Source of the DNA: Candidatus Cryptobacteroides sp.
Lineage (GTDB): Bacteria; Bacteroidota; Bacteroidia; Bacteroidales; UBA932
Assembly: GCA_045226315.1 (NCBI GenBank)
Contig: JBGVCF010000009.1
Span: 16,684-80,683 of the forward strand
DNA length: 64,000 bases
Direction of reading: 5' to 3'
The notes under the pieces are model-generated. The model saw only the letters and a program-made list of their open reading frames with translations. It had not been told where the DNA came from and ran no database searches. Positions 12,183 through 53,355 of this stretch are shown piece after piece. Position 1 is the first letter of the stretch. Every line of letters starts with the position of its first letter. A program made the translations under genes and the position numbers.

Positions 12183-13187
12183 ATGACACGAAGCAAAAAA
12201 ACAGGCCGGTTCATAACTATATCACGACACCATTTCTACGGGCGTTTCGCTCGCTGCGCCTCTGCGGCATCATTGGCTGCTTTCCTGCAGTCGCCGGCCT
12301 TTTTTACTTCGTGTACGCACGAAATATTGCCGCCCGCCTCAAAGGCCGTCCTCATCTCCCTGGACACCAAGAGTCCGGTTCCGGAGGCCGTAGACCTGTT
12401 CTTCTTCGATACCGTGGGCGTGCAGTTGCTGGATTCCTACCAGCAGGTCACCGACCTGCAGCAAACCCTTTACGGGCTTTCGGGTACAGGCGCCAAACGC
12501 CTCGTCGCCCTGTCCGGTAAAGCGGGTGAAGTGGAAGACTGGGGACGGATCCGCACCTATGGCGACCTTTGCAAACACAGCTTTTCCCTGGAACGGGATT
12601 CGGCCCGTTCTCCCCTATTATATGGTATGCTCCTGCTGCCCGACGGCGCATCCCGCCAGGCCGTGATGGAGCTGCATACCATGCTCAGCGCTATCCGGAT
12701 CCGTTCCGTCTCCTGTGATTTCCTTGGAACACCCTACGTAGGAGGTACCTTTTTAAATCAACAGCTCTTTCTTACCTATGCGGGGTCAGAATGCCTTCCG
12801 CTGGAAGCAGGAGACGGAGGTCCGGTTTCCTGGATGAATCCCGGATACCTGGACAGCGTGGCTGTCCGGCAGCTGCCGGAGCCGGAAATGCTGTGGCAGG
12901 ACGGATGTGGGGAAATCGGCCTTCAGCGCATCTACCCGGAGAAAACCTTTTACTGCTACCCCGGTACTCGAACGCACCTGGTGCTGGCGGGAACTATCGG
13001 CCCCATTACCTGTTACTATCCCATTCCTTTAGGGGAACTGAAACCGGACACCTGTTTAGAACTGGACATATCACTGCGCCGGATGGGATCTCCCAGTCCC
13101 GACATCCCCACGGTGAGCGGTGCCTTTGTCCTGGAAACCCAAACGCTCCCCTGGGAAGAGCGGGAGCCTTATACGGTTACGTACTAA
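12183..13187 (+). CDS. Putative lipoprotein, type V fimbrial (FimB/Mfa2-like) subunit
   Basis: Lipobox FTSC, then TK/S and DLFFFD. C-terminal ...LPWEEREPYTVTY resembles a donor strand. Confidence 0.5.
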   Translation: MTRSKKTGRFITISRHHFYGRFARCASAASLAAFLQSPAFFTSCTHEILPPASKAVLISLDTKSPVPEAVDLFFFDTVGVQLLDSYQQVTDLQQTLYGLSGTGAKRLVALSGKAGEVEDWGRIRTYGDLCKHSFSLERDSARSPLLYGMLLLPDGASRQAVMELHTMLSAIRIRSVSCDFLGTPYVGGTFLNQQLFLTYAGSECLPLEAGDGGPVSWMNPGYLDSVAVRQLPEPEMLWQDGCGEIGLQRIYPEKTFYCYPGTRTHLVLAGTIGPITCYYPIPLGELKPDTCLELDISLRRMGSPSPDIPTVSGAFVLETQTLPWEEREPYTVTY

Positions 13188-13190
13188 AAC

Positions 13191-14453
13191 ATGAAGAGAA
13201 CCTGTATCCTACTGTTGTTCCTGGTCGCGTGCACGCGGATGACAACGCCCGACAAGCGCATCAATTCAACCATTTGTTTAACCACCGGTGCTGCCATCAC
13301 GCGTGCCGTTGACCCGGACGAAACCCTGATTACAGACTACAACCTTCTCATTTTCAATTCCTTCGGAATATTGGAAGAAAAAGTGTTCTTAACCCGCAGG
13401 CAATTGGTCATGGAAGACGGGAAGGTCTATCACCGCACACGTCTGCTGCAGGATGTCCCCTACACCATCCTGGCCGCCGCCAACCTGGGTTACGAACTCC
13501 CCTGCCGTTCGCTGGAAGAAGCACTCTCTTACCGCTATCCCATGGCCTATCCCGACGAATTCACCCCGGGCATGCCCATGGCCGCCCACCTGGACAACGT
13601 GGTATTGGGCACGAAAGGAATGGTGGAACTCCCCCTGGAGCGGCTCATGGCACGGATTGAACTGCGCATAGACCGGCGTGCCCTGAGCCAGGAGGTCCAG
13701 TTCACCGTGCGGGAGGTCCGGGTAGGTGGCTGTCCCAACTCCGTGCTGCTGTTCGGAACCAGCAAGGCCGAAAGTGCGGCGCAGGTTTTCAGCAGCGGCT
13801 ATACGAAAAACTGGTCGCAGGTGGCGGCCCTGAACCAGGACGAAACCGTGGGAATGAGCGGCCCCGTTAGCGTTTATTTGCTGGAAAACGCCCAGGGAGA
13901 CCTTCTGGAACACGTTACCACCGACAGCGGGAAAGTATTCACCGACAGCCGATATCAGGAAGTTTGCTCTTATATAGAACTCAAGGCCGAATACCATTCT
14001 CCCTCGTTCCATTCCCGGGCAGGAGAATACCTCATCTACCGTTTCTATCTGGGTGAGAACCTGAACAACTTCGACGTTTTCAGGAATGTCCGATACAGGA
14101 TTACCGTCCGGCCGGAAGGCGACGGGCTGAAAGAAGACAGTTGGCGCGTAGATAAGGGCGGCCTGGAGGGACAAACCCGCTTCAACCTTCATCCGGCCGC
14201 CTACAACGAATGCCGTTCCGGTGAGGATTTCCACCTCTGGTGCGAAGTGGAACCGCCAGGAACTCCCATGTACATAGAGCCTCTGGCCCACGACGACGAC
14301 CCAAGGGTAGCCGAGCTATACAGCTATACAGTGGACCCGGACGGGAACGGACTCACCATCCACACGTGGAAGGGCGGATCGGCCGTGGTGTACTTCCAGG
14401 CCGGTCCTCCGGTGAACCGGGATACGCTGGCAATGTTGGTTATTGATCCTTGA
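13191..14453 (+). CDS. Lipoprotein, type V pilin-like (DUF4906-like)
   Basis: Lipobox LVAC, TR/A site, ETLITDYNLLIF, VYLLENAQG and YRFYLGENLNNFDVFRNVRYRITV. Confidence 0.55.
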   Translation: MKRTCILLLFLVACTRMTTPDKRINSTICLTTGAAITRAVDPDETLITDYNLLIFNSFGILEEKVFLTRRQLVMEDGKVYHRTRLLQDVPYTILAAANLGYELPCRSLEEALSYRYPMAYPDEFTPGMPMAAHLDNVVLGTKGMVELPLERLMARIELRIDRRALSQEVQFTVREVRVGGCPNSVLLFGTSKAESAAQVFSSGYTKNWSQVAALNQDETVGMSGPVSVYLLENAQGDLLEHVTTDSGKVFTDSRYQEVCSYIELKAEYHSPSFHSRAGEYLIYRFYLGENLNNFDVFRNVRYRITVRPEGDGLKEDSWRVDKGGLEGQTRFNLHPAAYNECRSGEDFHLWCEVEPPGTPMYIEPLAHDDDPRVAELYSYTVDPDGNGLTIHTWKGGSAVVYFQAGPPVNRDTLAMLVIDP

Positions 14454-15357
14454 GGTGCGCCACACAGAGGCGGAGAGAATCCAGCCAATAAGGGATTTGC
14501 AGGCCGAAGCCGGCTTTCACCAGGCTTTTGTCCAAGACGGAATAGGCCGGCCGATGCACCTTGGACGGGAATTCGTTGCTGTGGCAGGGCTGGATGTCGC
14601 AGGCCGTATGACCGGCACAGGCCGCTATGGCTTTGGCAAAGTCGTACCAGGAGCAGACGCCCTCATTGGTAAAATGGTAAATATGAGATTCTTCGCTTCG
14701 CTCAGAATGACAAGAAGGCCCGGAATGCAAGATGGACACGATAGCTTCCGCGAGGTCGCCGGCGTAGGTGGGCGTACCCACTTGGTCGAACACCACTTTC
14801 AGACTGGGTTTTTCGGCGGTAAGGCGCAGCATGGTCTTTACGAAATTCTTTCCGTATTCGCTGTACAACCACGCTGTACGCAGAATGATGTAACGGACAC
14901 CGCTGCGAAGGATGGCCTCCTCCCCTTGTAACTTGGTACGGCCGTATACGCCCAGCGGCGCCGGGCACTGCGACTCAGAAATAGGAGTATTAAGCACCTC
15001 TGCACCAAATACATAGTCGGTTGAGATATGCAGCAGTAAGCCATTCACTTCCCGCATGGCCACAGCCAGATTCTCCACGGCCTTGGCATTCAGGAGCTCC
15101 GCCAGTTCAGGATTGTCTTCGGCTCCATCCACGTTAGTATATGCAGCGCAGTTCACGATGCAATCCACCTGCTCCCGGGCCACCATTTTTCTAACAGAAG
15201 CCAGATCCGTGATATCCAGTTCCTCTACGTCAGTGTAAACCACCTGGAGATTCTTCACTTCGTTCAGAATGACAGTTTTGTCATCCTGAGCCTTGGCGAA
15301 GGATCTCCTAAGGCTCATGCCTAACTGGCCGTTGGCGCCGGTTACCAGGATCTTCAT
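14440..15357 (-). CDS. rfbD: dTDP-4-dehydrorhamnose reductase carrying two REP-derived insertions
   Basis: ILVTGANGQLG, NCAAYTNVD, HISTDYVF, YGRTK, RTAWLY and DQVGTPTYA. Confidence 0.93.
   Translation of the reverse strand: MKILVTGANGQLGMSLRRSFAKAQDDKTVILNEVKNLQVVYTDVEELDITDLASVRKMVAREQVDCIVNCAAYTNVDGAEDNPELAELLNAKAVENLAVAMREVNGLLLHISTDYVFGAEVLNTPISESQCPAPLGVYGRTKLQGEEAILRSGVRYIILRTAWLYSEYGKNFVKTMLRLTAEKPSLKVVFDQVGTPTYAGDLAEAIVSILHSGPSCHSERSEESHIYHFTNEGVCSWYDFAKAIAACAGHTACDIQPCHSNEFPSKVHRPAYSVLDKSLVKAGFGLQIPYWLDSLRLCVAHLKDQ
14685..14712 (-). repeat. REP-like palindromic unit inside rfbD (encodes CHSERSEES)
   Basis: Minus strand TGTCATTCTGAGCGAAGCGAAGAATCTC. Matches the 15247-15274 copy at 26/28 positions. 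Confidence 0.85.
15247..15307. repeat. Inverted REP doublet inside rfbD (encodes RSFAKAQDDKTVILNEVKNL)
   Basis: GAGATTCTTCACTTCGTTCAGAATGACA-gttt-TGTCATCCTGAGCCTTGGCGAAGGATCTC. Confidence 0.85.
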
Positions 15358-15932
15358 AGGGCGTAATAATCTATGTTATAGTCAAATAAGCCATCGGCCT
15401 CGTTTAACGGGAGGTGATGCTTGTCTTTCTCCGACAAGAGGATATCGGCCTTGGGGAGTCCCCAGTCGATGCCAAGGGTAGGATCGTCCCAGGCGATGGC
15501 CCCTTCCGCCGAAGGTTCATAGAGATTGTCGCACTTGTACTGGAATACGGCTTCTTCGCTCAGGACGGAAAAGCCATGCGCGAAGCCTCGAGGAATAAAG
15601 AAGAGCCGATGATTCTGGTCCGACAGTTCGCAGGCCACATACTTGCCGAAAGTGGGAGATCCCACGCGGATATCTACGGCTATGTCCAACACGCGGCCGC
15701 TGACCACACGCACCAGCTTGCTCTGGGTATATTTCCCCTTCTGGAAATGCAGCCCCCGGAGCACCCCATAACGGCTTTTGCTCTCGTTGTCCTGCACAAA
15801 TCGGATAGGACGCACGGCGGCATCGAAGTCCCGCTGGGACCAGGATTCCATGAAATAGCCCCGCGCATCTCCGAACACTTTAGGTTCGATGATGAAGACA
15901 CCCGGGATAAATGTTTCAACGACGTTAATCAT
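15354..15932 (-). CDS. rfbC: dTDP-4-dehydrorhamnose 3,5-epimerase
   Basis: [27 protein letters not shown] and PRGFAHGF. Confidence 0.95.
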
Positions 15933-16830
15933 AATTGGCAGGACCGTTTTTCTCTGCTTCTTCGGCTACTTTAAGCAGGTATTGTCCGTACTGGTTCTTG
16001 GCCATGGGAGCGGCCACGGCACGCACCTGAGCCGGTGTGACCCATCCTTTTTGCAGGCCGATAGCTTCCAGACAGGCCACCTTCAGGCCTTGCCGCTTCT
16101 CAATGGTCTCAATGTAGATGGAGGCTTCGGCCAGGGAATCGTGCGTTCCAGTATCCAGCCAGGCAAAACCGCGACCCAGCGTCTGGACCTTGAGTTCCCC
16201 AGCCTGCAGGAAGACCTGGTTTACCGTGGTGATTTCCAGTTCTCCCCGGGCCGACGGCTTAATGTGACGGGCCACATCCACCACCTTGTTGGGATAGAAA
16301 TACAAACCCACCACAGCATAATTGCTCTTGGGATGGACCGGCTTTTCTTCGATGGAAAGGCAATTGCCATCCTTGTCGAATTCGGCCACGCCATATCTCT
16401 CGGGGTCACTCACCCAATAGCCGAACACGGTGGCCTTGGATTCTTCTTCGGCCGTACGGACGGCTTCGCGCAGCAAGCCGCTGAATCCCGCACCATGGAA
16501 GATATTGTCGCCCAGTACCAGGCAGGCGCTGTCGTTGCCGATAAAATCGGCCCCTATGATGAAAGCCTGCGCCAGACCGTCCGGAGAGGGTTGTTCGGCA
16601 TAGGATAAATGGATGCCGAAGTCTGATCCGTCGCCCAACAGGCGTTGGAAACCGGGTAAATCCTGCGGTGTAGAAATAATGAGGATATCCCTGATTCCTG
16701 CCAGCATGAGCACGCTCACGGGATAATATACCATGGGCTTGTCATAGATGGGAAGCAACTGCTTTGAAACCCCTTTGGTGATGGGGTACAGACGGGTGCC
16801 GGAACCACCGGCGAGTACTATTCCTTTCAT
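15925..16830 (-). CDS. rfbA: Glucose-1-phosphate thymidylyltransferase
   Basis: [38 protein letters not shown] and WLDTGT. Confidence 0.96.
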
Positions 16831-16891
16831 TGTAACGCAAAAGTACTGATAAATTTTAGAAAAACCGCCTTTTTTTTTACCTTTGCGCCTC

Positions 16892-17935
16892 ATGAGGACC
16901 CTTGTTTTCGACTGTGAACAGTTGCGGAAGCCCTTTACCGGCTTCCACAGTTACTGTAGCAACCTGGCCCGCGCCCTGGTGAAACAGGCGCCCTCGGATG
17001 GCCCCCGGCTATCCCTCTATGTTCCAGAGACTTTCGAAGGCAGTTTCGGTCCGTCGGTGGACTATCTGCCCTGGCAATCCTCCCACAAGTTCTATCTGCC
17101 GGTCCCGGATAATACCGCTCTATGGCACTGTTCCAGTCAGCAGTCCAAGTATTGGCCCAGTTCCCGCCGTATTCCGGTACTCGTCACCATCCACGACGTG
17201 AACTTCATGCACATGCAGGAGCCGGCCCTCAGGCGGGCCCATCACAGGATGCTATACCAGCAGGCTATCCGCCGCGCCACGCGCATCGTCACCATCTCGG
17301 AATCGGCCAAGAGGGATATCCTGGCCCACTTCGATACCCACGGGAAACCCGTGGATGTGGTATACAACGGAACCGAGGCTTGCCCCGCCAACGTACAGGC
17401 GCCCGCCGTAATTCCTGACCGGCCTTTTCTTCTGAATATCAACCGTATCTGCCGCAACAAAAACGTGCATGTGCTCCCGGCCCTGCTGGTCGGCAACGAT
17501 CTTGATCTTCTCATCGCCGGCCCTGTGGAAGACAAGGCCTATGCAGAAGAGATTCTCCGGGAAGCGCGCCGCTGGAAGGTGGAAGAGCGCGTCAAGTTCA
17601 TCGGCCCGGTGCATACCGCCGAAAAACACTGGTACATGCAACACTGCGAGGCATTTCTCTTCCCTTCCCTGGCCGAAGGTTTCGGCCTGCCGGTGCTGGA
17701 GGCCCTGCAGTATTACAAGCCTGTCTTTTGCTCGGACCGCACTTCACTGCCCGAAGTAGGCGGTGATTGCGTTTTTTATTTCGACCACCTATTCCAGCCC
17801 GACGCCATGCAGGCCCTTTTGGAACAAGGTTTGCAGGCAAATCTGTCCCGGACGGCCATTGATGCCCATTTATCCCGCTTTACCTGGGACAAGGCCGCCA
17901 GCGCATATTGGAAGATTTATCAAGAAATGATTTAG
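16892..17935 (+). CDS. GT4-family glycosyltransferase
   Basis: VTIHD, VVYNG and [23 protein letters not shown] promoter box at 16878-16885. Confidence 0.88.
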
Positions 17936-17936
17936 C

Positions 17937-18539
17937 ATGAAGCCCTCCGATTTCAACCGGCTGTTCGACAGCGTCATCGCCGATTATCATACCACCGACA
18001 ACATCGACACGCCCTGCCCCAATCCTTATGAGAAAGGCTCCCTGGCATTCCTGCTCTATCAGAAATGCTGGATTGACACCGTTCAGTGGCACCTGGAAGA
18101 CATCATCCGGGATCCGGACATCCAGCCGGTGGAAGCCCTGGCCATCAAGCGCCGTATCGACAAGTCCAACCAGGACCGCACCGACATGGTGGAATACATC
18201 GACTCTTATTATCTGCAGTTGTTCCAGGATGTTACACCCAAGGCCGATGCCCGCGTGAACACGGAAACCCCCGCCTGGGCCATTGACCGTCTCTCCATCC
18301 TGGCGCTGAAAATCTACCACATGCAGGCCGAGGCCACGCGTCCCGATGCATCGGCCGAACACCGCGCCCGTTGCGCAGCGAAACTGCAGGTGTTGCTTAC
18401 CCAGCGGGAAGACCTTACGCAGTCCATCACCGAACTGCTGGAAGACCTCTCCGCCGGCACCAAGCGCATGAAGGTGTACAAACAGATGAAGATGTATAAC
18501 GACACCGACACCAATCCGGTGCTATACGCCAAGAAGTAA
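17937..18539 (+). CDS. DUF4254 domain protein
   Basis: IDTVQWHLEDIIR, KRRIDKSNQDRTD, ETPAWAIDRLSIL and KQMKMYND. Sits in the usual position beside GT9. Confidence 0.8.
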   Translation: MKPSDFNRLFDSVIADYHTTDNIDTPCPNPYEKGSLAFLLYQKCWIDTVQWHLEDIIRDPDIQPVEALAIKRRIDKSNQDRTDMVEYIDSYYLQLFQDVTPKADARVNTETPAWAIDRLSILALKIYHMQAEATRPDASAEHRARCAAKLQVLLTQREDLTQSITELLEDLSAGTKRMKVYKQMKMYNDTDTNPVLYAKK

Positions 18540-51624: not shown

Positions 51625-53355
51625 ATGAGTGGCTCTCTCCTCCTATCGCTTCTGCTTCAGGTTTTTCTTCCCAAAATGGTGGAGATTCCAGCCGGGTCTT
51701 TTACCATGGGAACGGCCCAGCCGCCCATGGAAGATTGGGACGAAGCCCCCGCCCGCTGCGTTTCGGTCCAGGCTTTCCGGATTAGCGCCACGGAAATCAC
51801 CAATGCCCAGTACGAAGCCTTCGATCCTTCTCACCGCAGTTTGCGGGGGTACCAAGGTTTTTCCAAGGCCGATGACGAGGCCGTGGTGATGGTCTCCTGG
51901 GAAGAGGCCACGGCCTACTGTCAATGGCTCTCCCAGCGCACCGGGCAGCTTTTCCGCCTGCCCACCGAGGCCGAATGGGAGTATGCTTGCCGGGCCGGCA
52001 CGGAATCGGACTACAATACAGGTGACACCTTCCCGGAAAGCCAGTGGAAAGTACAGAAGAATACCCGCTACAAAGAGCCTGTTTCCTTGCAAGTAGCTCA
52101 GTTTGAGCCCAATGCGTGGGGCCTGTACGACATGCACGGCAACGTGGAGGAATGGTGTCTGGATGCCGTTTCCTCCTCCCCGGCCTCAACCGGGGATCTC
52201 CGAGCCGTCCGCGGCGGCAGCCACAACACCCCGGTCCGGTACCTTCGCAGCGCCAACCGCAGCGCCTCCGTTCCGGCCGACCGCTCCGTCCTCTTGGGCT
52301 TCCGTGTGGTGGAAGGACCCACAAGCACCGAATCGGCCCCCTCCGTGCCTGTAGCGCCGCTGTTCGAAGAGCCGCTACCCTATGTATTGCAACCGGAGGA
52401 TGGCGTGACGCCCTTTTATGCGCATAACCACCAGCCGGCCGTCACCTGGACACCGGACGGTGACCTCCTGGCCATCTGGTTCTCCACGGATGCAGAGGCC
52501 GGCCGCGAGATGGTCGTACTCCAGTCCCGTTTCCATGAAGGCCGATGGTCCCCCGCCTCGCTCTTCTACAAGGTTCCGGACCGGAACATGACCGGCAGTG
52601 CCCTGCTCACCATGGATGGAAGAATCCTTCATTTCCAGGGAATCGGCGATGCCGGGGAATGGAAAGACCTGGCACTGGGCATGCGCGAAAGCCAGGACGG
52701 TGGCTGCACCTGGACAGCAACCCGCCTCATTGAGCCGGAACATGAGGTGCGGCATCAGGTGATTGCCGGTCCCATCGTTACAAAAGACGGACGTATCCTC
52801 CTGTGCTGCGATGCCGGACCGGGCGGACAAGACGGCACTTCCCTGCATGTTTCGCGGGATGGCGGCCTTACTTGGGAAGATACCGGCAGCACCATCGCAG
52901 GTATCCATGCGGGCATCGTGGAGCGGAAAGACGGCTCGCTCATGGCTTTCGGCCGGGGCAATGCCATCGCCGGCCAGATGCCCTGCAGCATCTCCCGGGA
53001 CGGCGGTTATACCTGGGACTTTTCCGCCACGGATTTCCCTCCTATCGGCAGTGGCCAGCGTCTGGTACTCAAGCGTTTGCAGGAAGGTCCGCTGATGCTT
53101 TGCTCCTTCGGCCCGGACGGTCTGTATGTAGCGTTGAGCTACGATGAAGGCGTTAACTGGCCTGTGAAAAAGCTCCTCACCGACGGGAAGACACGCGTGC
53201 TGGACGGCGGTGCCTGGACCGGCACCTTCACCCTGGACGCCACCCATGCCGAACCCAAAGGCTATCTGGCCTGCACCCAGAGCCCGGACGGTGTGATCCA
53301 CCTCCTTAGTTCCCGCGTCCATTACCGCTTTAACTTGGCCTGGATTCAGCAGTAG
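51625..53355 (+). CDS. SUMF1/FGE-domain plus BNR (sialidase-like) fusion protein
   Basis: TEITNAQY, RLPTEAEWEYACRAG, NAWGLYDMHGNVEEW and GFRVV, then Asp boxes SQDGGCTW, SRDGGLTW, SRDGGYTW and SYDEGVNW. Confidence 0.8.
   Translation: MSGSLLLSLLLQVFLPKMVEIPAGSFTMGTAQPPMEDWDEAPARCVSVQAFRISATEITNAQYEAFDPSHRSLRGYQGFSKADDEAVVMVSWEEATAYCQWLSQRTGQLFRLPTEAEWEYACRAGTESDYNTGDTFPESQWKVQKNTRYKEPVSLQVAQFEPNAWGLYDMHGNVEEWCLDAVSSSPASTGDLRAVRGGSHNTPVRYLRSANRSASVPADRSVLLGFRVVEGPTSTESAPSVPVAPLFEEPLPYVLQPEDGVTPFYAHNHQPAVTWTPDGDLLAIWFSTDAEAGREMVVLQSRFHEGRWSPASLFYKVPDRNMTGSALLTMDGRILHFQGIGDAGEWKDLALGMRESQDGGCTWTATRLIEPEHEVRHQVIAGPIVTKDGRILLCCDAGPGGQDGTSLHVSRDGGLTWEDTGSTIAGIHAGIVERKDGSLMAFGRGNAIAGQMPCSISRDGGYTWDFSATDFPPIGSGQRLVLKRLQEGPLMLCSFGPDGLYVALSYDEGVNWPVKKLLTDGKTRVLDGGAWTGTFTLDATHAEPKGYLACTQSPDGVIHLLSSRVHYRFNLAWIQQ

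Follow-up and report, generated by a model that had tools for sequence, protein, structure and literature searches.

The rfbD locus and its repeat units

The stretch analysed here, hereafter the window, comprises 64,000 nucleotides of a Candidatus Cryptobacteroides genome (GCA_045226315.1, contig JBGVCF010000009.1) and corresponds to C9:16684-80683 of a 2.31-Mb assembly in 42 contigs (genome label G000). It carries the dTDP-4-dehydrorhamnose reductase gene rfbD, also named rmlD, in which three short hairpin-forming repeat units can be found, two of them arranged head to head as a doublet (Table 1). Judging from sequence comparisons, the doublet probably (at roughly 0.8) belongs to a TGTC-tagged hairpin family within the CGTC-tagged repetitive extragenic palindrome (REP) superfamily (identical to the Ssn-related motifs, SRM), and this family would have a Ssn-type GIY-YIG nuclease as its partner.

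RfbD scores 282.7 bits against the NCBIfam equivalog TIGR01214 (cut-off 224), and its gene is the sole copy in the genome. It closes a run rfbA-rfbC-rfbD in which stop and start codons overlap and whose order is kept in all related contigs fetched. The reading frame runs through all three units, the doublet being translated as RRSFAKAQDDKTVILNEVKNLQ and unit C as CHSERSEES, and the doublet begins 4 residues past the GxxGxxG motif (GANGQLG). An earlier, sequence-only reading of the window had described an in-frame inverted doublet and a third unit in rfbD; positions and frame are borne out, and so is the fold that it gave, with an ATYCT/AGRAT outer stem, a constant 2+2 mismatch and an inner stem of GC/GC, AC/GT or GCC/GGC. 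The constant mismatch is TC/TC on the strand then considered and GA/GA on the TGTCAT strand. Regarding the individual units, A combines an ATCCT/AGGAT stem with a GCC-TT-GGC centre and B an ATTCT/AGAAT stem with an AC-GAA-GT centre. The 26-nt core of unit B is exactly the genome's second commonest variant (14 copies), that of unit C exactly the commonest (27 copies). The tag pattern TGTCATYCTGAR has 3 matches in the window, where 0.02 would be expected, and 0/100 shuffles reach 3. For the 86-nt stretch over the doublet (15235-15320), the folding energy of -14 kcal/mol is only moderately better than that of shuffles (z = -2.6), and an Rfam scan by E-value of window positions 13000-18000 and of the nuclease (ssn) locus gave chance-level matches only.

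Table 1. Coordinates of the features discussed; positions without a contig label are those of the window.
Feature	Position	Strand	Remarks
rfbD/rmlD	14440-15357	-	305 aa, intact open reading frame (ORF)
Unit A of doublet, TGTCATCCTGAGCCTTGGCGAAGGATCTCC	15279-15308	+	antisense to rfbD; encodes RSFAKAQDD
Doublet spacer GTTT	15275-15278		4 nt, between two facing TGTC tags
Unit B of doublet, TGTCATTCTGAACGAAGTGAAGAATCTCC	15246-15274	-	sense to rfbD; encodes VILNEVKNL
Single unit C, TGTCATTCTGAGCGAAGCGAAGAATCTC	14685-14712	-	sense to rfbD; encodes CHSERSEES
rfbC	15354-15932	-	upstream of rfbD
rfbA	15925-16893	-	upstream of rfbD
Convergent gene	13191-14453	+	420 aa
GIY-YIG nuclease gene (ssn)	C42:26396-26707		104 aa
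Units bracketing ssn	C42:26391; C42:26751	+; -	tags outward
Y1_Tnp-like genes (L001-L007)	C21:41751, C16:11036, C19:64225, C37:63017, C31:64393, C40:462, C31:88137		about 310 aa, paralogous, weak matches
Citrate-lyase-ligase/CitG fusion (L063)	C4:24486-26699		737 aa
SufBD-family gene (L053)	C26:67086-67736		216 aa
Head duplications	C20:10467-10486; C41:17191-17214
Units probably false	C19:31918; C32:54085; C20:13844		relaxed scan only

The repeat family across the genome

The same tag pattern has 97 matches in the 2.31-Mb genome, where the reversed control pattern has 0, and a relaxed genome scan recovers about 100 full units; the family of tagged, bulged hairpins entering coding sequence that had been proposed from the window alone is supported as genuine and abundant. 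On the TGTCAT strand, every unit opens with TGTC and then AT(T/C)CT, followed by G-A, an inner stem-loop, G-A, AG(A/G)AT and a tail that reads C-TCC or C-TGT. The variable pair of the outer stem is T:A in 58/100 units and C:G in 42/100, and is mismatched in none (0/100). At least eight complementary types of inner stem can be found (GC/GC, AC/GT, GT/AC, AT/AT, GCC/GGC, GGC/GCC, GCT/AGC and GGCC/GGCC), mostly closed by a GAA loop (3 nt), and the tandem G-A/G-A mismatches are constant, the long unit type having a second G-A/G-A block. This pair covariation, counted directly on the unit sequences, lies largely between sub-families.

Most units do not stand alone, 58 of them forming 29 head-to-head doublets and 42 being single. 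The spacers of the 29 doublets are mostly 2-6 nt long, with 2 and 4 nt the commonest. An ATCCT-stem arm is joined to an ATTCT-stem arm in 28/29 doublets, where random pairing would give about 49%, and the doublet peptide RSFVASAPQDD(N/S)C..CHSERSEESP is found again in IleS, MnmG, a YfhO-like protein and SufD. This heterotypic pairing and the recurrence of the peptide in several genes suggest that the head-to-head doublet is the form that spreads. Head duplications can also be seen at two places in the genome (Table 1). Pairs in the opposite, heads-outward arrangement within 600 nt number only 4, and only one of them encloses just a small gene, namely ssn.

A GIY-YIG nuclease gene bracketed by units

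The 104-aa product of this gene matches the GIY-YIG domain (PF01541) with 65.7 bits over profile positions 1-75 of 78 and has no other domain; together with UvrC, it accounts for all the Pfam GIY-YIG matches in the genome. The left bracketing unit encodes the C-terminal residues of the protein. Residues Y8, Y19 and E66 are invariant in the nuclease alignment and have the spacing of Y6, Y17 and E64 of SsnA from Neisseria, in which the changes Y6A, Y17A and E64A abolish cutting (PMC11893778). The only solved relative found for the 104-aa protein is 1ZG2 (UPF0213; E = 1.9e-5). The published motifs called NTS (CGTCATTCCCGCGMAVGCGGGAATCYRG) and the wider SRM motifs likewise flank ssnA homologues, which encode single-domain GIY-YIG proteins (CDD cd10448; Chenal et al., 2025, Nat Commun 16:2388; PMC11893778). 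Binding of the hairpin by SsnA requires single-stranded DNA and is confined to one strand, with cleavage a few bases upstream of the hairpin (PMC11893778).

The sequence-only reading had assigned the units to REP or REPIN elements mobilised by a REP-associated tyrosine transposase (RAYT, an HUH Y1 enzyme), as in Pseudomonas and E. coli, and had named a repeat-flanked Y1 transposase or GIY-YIG nuclease as the gene to look for. The nuclease is there, between two inverted units, and the transposase is not; the window itself holds no mobiliser, as that reading had correctly observed. It is true that seven Y1_Tnp-like proteins (PF01797) are encoded, at least one of them with the HUH-like motif DHIHCVLLV, and that doublets as an apparent mobile form resemble REPINs. 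However, no unit was found within about 1.5 kb of any of the seven genes, the tag is TGTC and not GTAG, the gene bracketed by units encodes a GIY-YIG nuclease, and no associated transposase has been found for CGTC-tagged REPs (Di Nocera, De Gregorio & Rocco, 2013; PMC3733652). Since its defining test fails, there being neither a repeat-flanked Y1 gene nor a GTAG tag, mobilisation by a RAYT is rejected as very improbable.

The association of nuclease and hairpins extends well beyond this genome. A search of species-representative genomes from a 5-sequence alignment confirmed 591 relatives of the nuclease. The best 80 of these share 51-70% identity and come from more than 10 phyla, including Bacteroidota, Firmicutes, several Proteobacteria classes, Actinobacteria, Acidobacteria, Patescibacteria, Cyanobacteria, Spirochaetes and others, the top relative being from a Candidatus Cryptobacteroides metagenome-assembled genome. 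Tagged hairpins stand heads-outward on both flanks in 24 of the best 80. Many of the flanking hairpins of these best 80 read TGTCATTCCCGCGAACGCGGGAATCCA, also written (T/C)GTCATTCCCGCGAACGCGGGAATCCA, which is essentially the NTS core, and the literal SRM pattern is matched at 17 of the 80 loci. Within the genus, ssn homologues with 65-69% identity occur only in G002, G012 and G021, where they are bracketed likewise by a different variant, TGTCATTTCGAG...GAGAAATC; this variant has 151 copies in G002, 84 in G012, 20 in G021 and 0 in the present genome. The nuclease and its flanking repeat variant therefore vary together within the genus.

Units within genes

Around half of the units (51/100) are enclosed by long ORFs (120 aa or more), with 8 or more codons to either side of the unit. 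Leaving out of the intragenic counts the three units of the relaxed scan that are probably false (Table 1), 48 units (~49%) are found in all long ORFs, and 35 (~36%) are well inside Pfam-supported genes. The Pfam-confirmed hosts are involved in translation, RNA modification and replication (IleS, MnmG, DnaX, a TsaB/TsaD-type protein, RsmE and a SpoU methylase) or in metabolism and cell wall synthesis (CarA, a class A penicillin-binding protein, an aminotransferase and an altronate dehydratase), and also include glycoside hydrolases of families GH2 and GH3 and an alpha-2-macroglobulin (a protease inhibitor). The most decorated gene in the genome is the citrate-lyase-ligase/CitG fusion, with four in-frame units in the form of two singles and one doublet with a 32-nt spacer. 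The orientation of the intragenic units is sense in 27 cases and antisense in 21. A unit has four open frames out of six, and the units are read as four peptides, namely CHSERSEES, VILSEAKNL, EILRFAQND and RFFASLRMT.

A SufBD-family gene starts directly after sufC, covers profile positions 93-230 of 232, the N-terminal half being lost, and carries a doublet at residues 13-33. Truncation of SufD by this doublet was considered and the disruption call dropped, the 216-aa ORF starting right after sufC with the doublet near its N-terminus.

How a host enzyme may accommodate such inserts can be seen from an AlphaFold2 model of RfbD, computed from a 62-sequence alignment (mean predicted local distance difference test score, pLDDT, 87.9; predicted template modelling score 0.89). 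The model is confident throughout except at residues 27-34 and 214-221 (pLDDT < 50), which correspond to the unit B peptide and to the start of the unit C insert. Because low confidence is confined to these peptides, the inserts are predicted to occupy two surface loops. Helix alpha-1 (residues 11-25) takes in the unit A peptide RSFAKAQD, of which residues 18-25 are helical in the model, so that unit A would supply the end of this helix of the Rossmann fold. With its inserts, RfbD is predicted to stay a recognisable, well-folding RmlD.

Considering that unit A contributes to helix alpha-1 in this model, and that units are transcribed and translated within essential genes, the repeat might be kept for its encoded peptide or for a role as RNA, e.g., as a peptide module or as an mRNA hairpin acting on translation or stability. 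Yet a single DNA sequence yields four unrelated peptides, in both orientations (27 against 21), about half of the copies lie between genes, disorder is predicted for the encoded loops and no Rfam family is matched. Moreover, the stable G-A geometry exists on one strand only, yet both orientations occur in mRNAs. Selection for a peptide or an RNA is thus extremely improbable.

History of the rfbD inserts

Same-genus rfbD orthologues at 49-62% identity are without units, whereas metagenome relatives at 62-98% identity, with unchanged flanking genes, form an allelic series. At site 1, that of the doublet, the full doublet can be found in the present genome and in P0001-3, and also in distant clades such as P0021-34, P0039-47 and P0083/100. 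A tag-less remnant reading RSFAKAQD-FQ is present in P0004, 5, 8 and 12-17, other partial forms in P0006-7, 9-11 and 18-20, and an empty site in P0031, 33 and 37. At site 2, that of unit C, the forms are CHSERSEE, the shorter SERSEE and empty (RILETPQEG). The empty-site alleles in close relatives that the sequence-only reading had made a test of its case therefore exist, with partial alleles besides.

The remnant at site 1 equals the doublet minus 33 nt over both tags, with the last bases of unit B retained, and in P0010 21 nt over both tags are gone. Since the 3' end of unit B is retained, the tag-less alleles at site 1 are deletion products of the doublet, and a simple gain model, also considered, is rejected for the same reason. 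The short form at site 2 has lost 18 nt that lie between two CATTC repeats of the full form, and the tag with them. Other lineages show partial duplications, or 21-nt tandem repeats, of the tag-proximal part. In natural alleles of rfbD, insertions and deletions (indels) thus cluster at or just 5' of the tags, and such tag-clustered deletions and duplications would fit the cut site published for Ssn enzymes.

Expansions by tandem repeats or partial head duplications are seen in the RfbD loops of L184 (P0100; 301-1395), L181 (P0023) and L183 (P0106). The 21-nt tandem repeats encode SQDDRPS in 3-5 copies, leading to a 364-aa protein.

In a maximum-likelihood tree of rfbD built with both insert sites masked, doublet-bearing, remnant and empty alleles are interleaved. 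The same two RfbD loops also receive other sub-families, namely VMPGSDRAS/AGQAGND (TGTCATGCCCGG...), HPGLDPGS (CCTCATCCCGGG...) and HSGLDPES, two of which were confirmed at the DNA level, and a CCTC-tagged variant lies at the same loop in another lineage.

The DNA of the units is more conserved than the gene that carries them. Compared with P0023, units are 93% identical and the rest of rfbD 72% (third codon positions, 86% vs 52%); compared with P0100, the figures are 90% vs 66% (third codon positions, 79% vs 42%). Fisher's test gives p-values of about 1e-5 to 1e-6 when all positions are taken and of 3e-4 to 6e-4 when only third positions are. From this excess it follows that the unit DNA in rfbD is under selection itself, is homogenised by copying from other units, or was re-inserted after divergence of the gene.

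The family had been proposed to be active or recently active. This is true of the family as such, given the gain in MnmG and the genome-specific expansions described below, but not of the rfbD doublet. The latter is old, the same doublet occupying the same position in orthologues at only 66-72% DNA identity, and the closest rfbD alleles vary by loss of the tag-bearing centre, without new insertion.

Other genes and sub-families across the genus

The IleS loop that carries a doublet in this genome is empty (LVPDGSE) in 27 congeners. In G050 it holds a different family, CGTCATTCCCGGCTCCGACCGGGAATCTCC, with a head duplication, and in G010 (C77, L187) at least the forward unit, a run of N coming just after TGTCATTCTGAGC. 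The CGTCATTCCCGGCTCCGACCGGGAATCTCC family has 31 copies in G050 and 0 in the present genome, the rfbD-type family 19 and 97, respectively; the family found at the IleS loop thus matches the one that dominates the genome concerned. The MnmG doublet is present in this genome only, and because the nearest congeners (82-89% flank identity) are empty, it represents a lineage-specific gain. It lies in the linker after VPRGT. In its own right, this linker (L215-L244) is hypervariable in the genus, with 1-85 extra residues that in most species are unrelated to the repeats. Copy numbers of three sub-families differ widely from one genome to another (Table 2).

Table 2. Copies of three tag patterns in seven genomes of the genus.
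Genome	TGTCATYCTGAR	TGTCATTTCGAS	YGTCATTCCCGG
G000 (this genome)	97	0	0
G002	69	151	5
G010	42	43	3
G021	33	20	1
G050	19	1	31
G007	10	19	37
G012	6	84	not counted

It can be hypothesized that units and nuclease form a domesticated host system, e.g., for restriction of single-stranded DNA or for control of recombination or transformation as with NTS and SsnA. Such a system overlaps the reading given at the outset and differs from it only on why copies persist, namely by selection for function. SsnA reduces integration of NTS-bearing DNA (PMC11893778), and conservation of the unit DNA clearly exceeds that of the host gene, as would be the case for functional sites. On the other hand, congeneric species vary widely in copy number (0-151) and family make-up, most of them lack the nuclease gene, and 36-49% of the units are intragenic, in both orientations and four frames, which looks like tolerated insertion. 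Natural competence is not known for this group, which also counts against domestication. Taken together, selection for such a function is rather unlikely to be what maintains the copies.

Weight of the evidence and mode of spread

Several observations weigh against placing the rfbD doublet in the CGTC/SRM class with a Ssn-type partner. The published SRM pattern HGTCWYN(0-2)YYVSBRHN(0-5)WNVSBRGN(0-2)RNCYNB is matched by 0/100 units, because the G-A-interrupted stem breaks it even though the HGTCWY tag is present; the 18 literal matches in the genome are scattered and chance-like. In Neisseria, changing the sequence of the palindrome while keeping its structure abolishes SsnA activity (PMC11893778). 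Here, a single ssn with ATTCT-stem flanks would have to serve both 58 ATTCT-stem and 42 ATCCT-stem units. G010 contains 42 + 43 units of two families, and ssn was not detected in this genome, which is 91% complete. Single-unit DNA folds, computed with standard DNA parameters, show no extra stability over shuffles (z about 0 to +0.8), which is why the fold is supported by covariation and not by predicted energy. Standard DNA energy parameters give no credit to sheared G-A pairs or to the GCGAAGC mini-hairpin. Target-site duplications or other direct marks of transposition were not seen at the units, and the excess conservation in rfbD could come from independent later insertions at the same site.

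With the doublet so placed, the following course of events can be proposed. By analogy with the Neisseria and Wolbachia enzymes, the Ssn-type nuclease would bind the hairpin of the TGTCAT strand when the DNA is single-stranded, and would then nick it a few bases 5' of the tag. The doublet, with one ATCCT-stem and one ATTCT-stem arm, would by its look be the unit that spreads. RfbD would survive because its inserts sit in two predicted surface loops and four of the six frames of a unit are open, and the deletions and duplications of rfbD would centre on the tags, where the cut is expected. The anatomy of the units, their copy numbers and covariation, their linkage to the nuclease gene, the intragenic fraction, the allelic series and the excess conservation are shown here, whereas we infer that the nuclease cleaves, how the units spread and that cleavage is linked to the indels.

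One tentative possibility is that the units spread by homing-like gene conversion, in which Ssn nicks 5' of the tag and repair copies other units, so that intragenic units would not be passive relics. Such copying would explain why rfbD units are 90-93% identical across lineages with rfbD at 66-72%, why the same loops (two in RfbD, one in IleS) hold different sub-families in different lineages, why deletions and tandem duplications cluster at the tags and tag-less remnants persist, and how the heterotypic head-to-head doublet could act as the spreading unit. If true, REP-type repeats would be spread and refreshed by means of a nuclease, with no transposase involved, and the surface loops of essential enzymes would thereby be continually rewritten.

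How CGTC-class REPs multiply has been an open question since their description, and not until 2025 was their nuclease partner discovered. With regard to this question, the genus is a natural experiment, with close species, 0-151 copies, three sub-families, and the nuclease gene present or absent. In addition, public metagenomes contain graded alleles (full doublet, tag-less remnant, empty) of single-copy genes, which makes spread and decay testable. There is also a bearing on annotation and on the reading of 'insertions' in protein alignments.

Other observations

The 420-aa gene convergent with rfbD overlaps its 3' end by 14 nt and has a lipoprotein-like N-terminus; a faint DUF4906 match is seen in relatives, and the arrangement is kept in all related contigs fetched. 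Elsewhere in the window, at 51867 and 58258 (-), lie copies of the 10-mer GTCATCGGCC, which occurs 109 times genome-wide, where base composition would predict about 5. No consensus extends beyond the 10-mer, and the 3-nt periodicity of its flanks places most copies inside genes. As an over-represented word, it resembles an uptake sequence or Chi.

Comparison with known systems

The CGTC-tagged REPs, divided into CGTC-1 to -4 and including dRS3 of Neisseria and RPE-4/RPE-6 of Rickettsia, were described by Di Nocera, De Gregorio & Rocco (2013), who also reported TGTC and CCTC tag variants and the presence of such repeats in Bacteroidetes (PMC3733652). Their stems are 8-9 bp long, with loops of 4-5 nt and a 3-nt tail of consensus CCA; head-to-head dimers predominate, tail-to-tail dimers are rare, and intragenic in-frame dimers encode 20-30 aa (PMC3733652). 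The units described here share with them the terminal CGTC/TGTC/CCTC tag, the AT-started stem and the unpaired 3-nt tail, and likewise the dominance of head-to-head over rare tail-to-tail dimers, the in-frame intragenic dimers and the lack of an attached tyrosine transposase. They differ in a stem made of 5 bp, G-A/G-A and 2-3 bp, in a mostly GAA loop and in a TCC/TGT tail, the overall span being similar, and in that 28/29 doublets join two different stem types.

The Ssn/SRM system resembles the present case in its protein, which is about 100 aa long, consists of one GIY-YIG domain and has its catalytic residues spaced alike. Both also have a nuclease gene bracketed by inverted, oriented hairpin repeats, a (C/T)GTCAT tag followed by an AT-initiated palindrome and a short tail, and about 100 copies per genome; in addition, close homologues of the 104-aa protein are flanked by NTS-like units. 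Unlike the continuous 8-bp stem of the published SRM, the stem here consists of 5 bp, a tandem G-A mismatch and 2-3 bp, and the published SRM search pattern thus misses whole sub-families. Furthermore, 36-49% of units are intragenic here, compared with 2% of NTS within genes in N. meningitidis (PMC11893778). The host is an uncultured gut member of the Bacteroidales, in which the nuclease is known from sequence; 'Bacteroid' is absent from the main text of Chenal et al. (2025; PMC11893778).

The palindromic elements of Rickettsia (RPE) likewise keep the reading frame of the many housekeeping genes that they have entered (Ogata et al., 2000, as cited in PMC3733652), and, as far as that account goes, they form surface-exposed segments in apparently functional proteins and are present or absent between related lineages. 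The present case differs by phylum and lifestyle, by a candidate partner nuclease in the same genome and by insert DNA that is conserved above the host gene. RPE-1 is also longer, about 100-150 bp. With these units, the Bacteroidales become, after Rickettsia, another group whose essential enzymes routinely gain peptides from such repeats. As for the REP/REPIN-RAYT system (REPtron), the likeness consists of short hairpin repeats, of inverted doublets that are likely mobile and of a single-copy enzyme gene bracketed by repeats, and the difference lies in the enzyme, a GIY-YIG nuclease here and a HUH Y1 transposase there, and in the tag, TGTC here and GTAG there.

The class is not new, as the articles of 2013 and 2025 between them already cover the repeats, the nuclease partner and the in-frame occurrence in coding sequence. 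What is variant in the present genome is the G-A-interrupted stem, the heterotypic doublet, the very high intragenic fraction and the conservation of units above that of the host gene.

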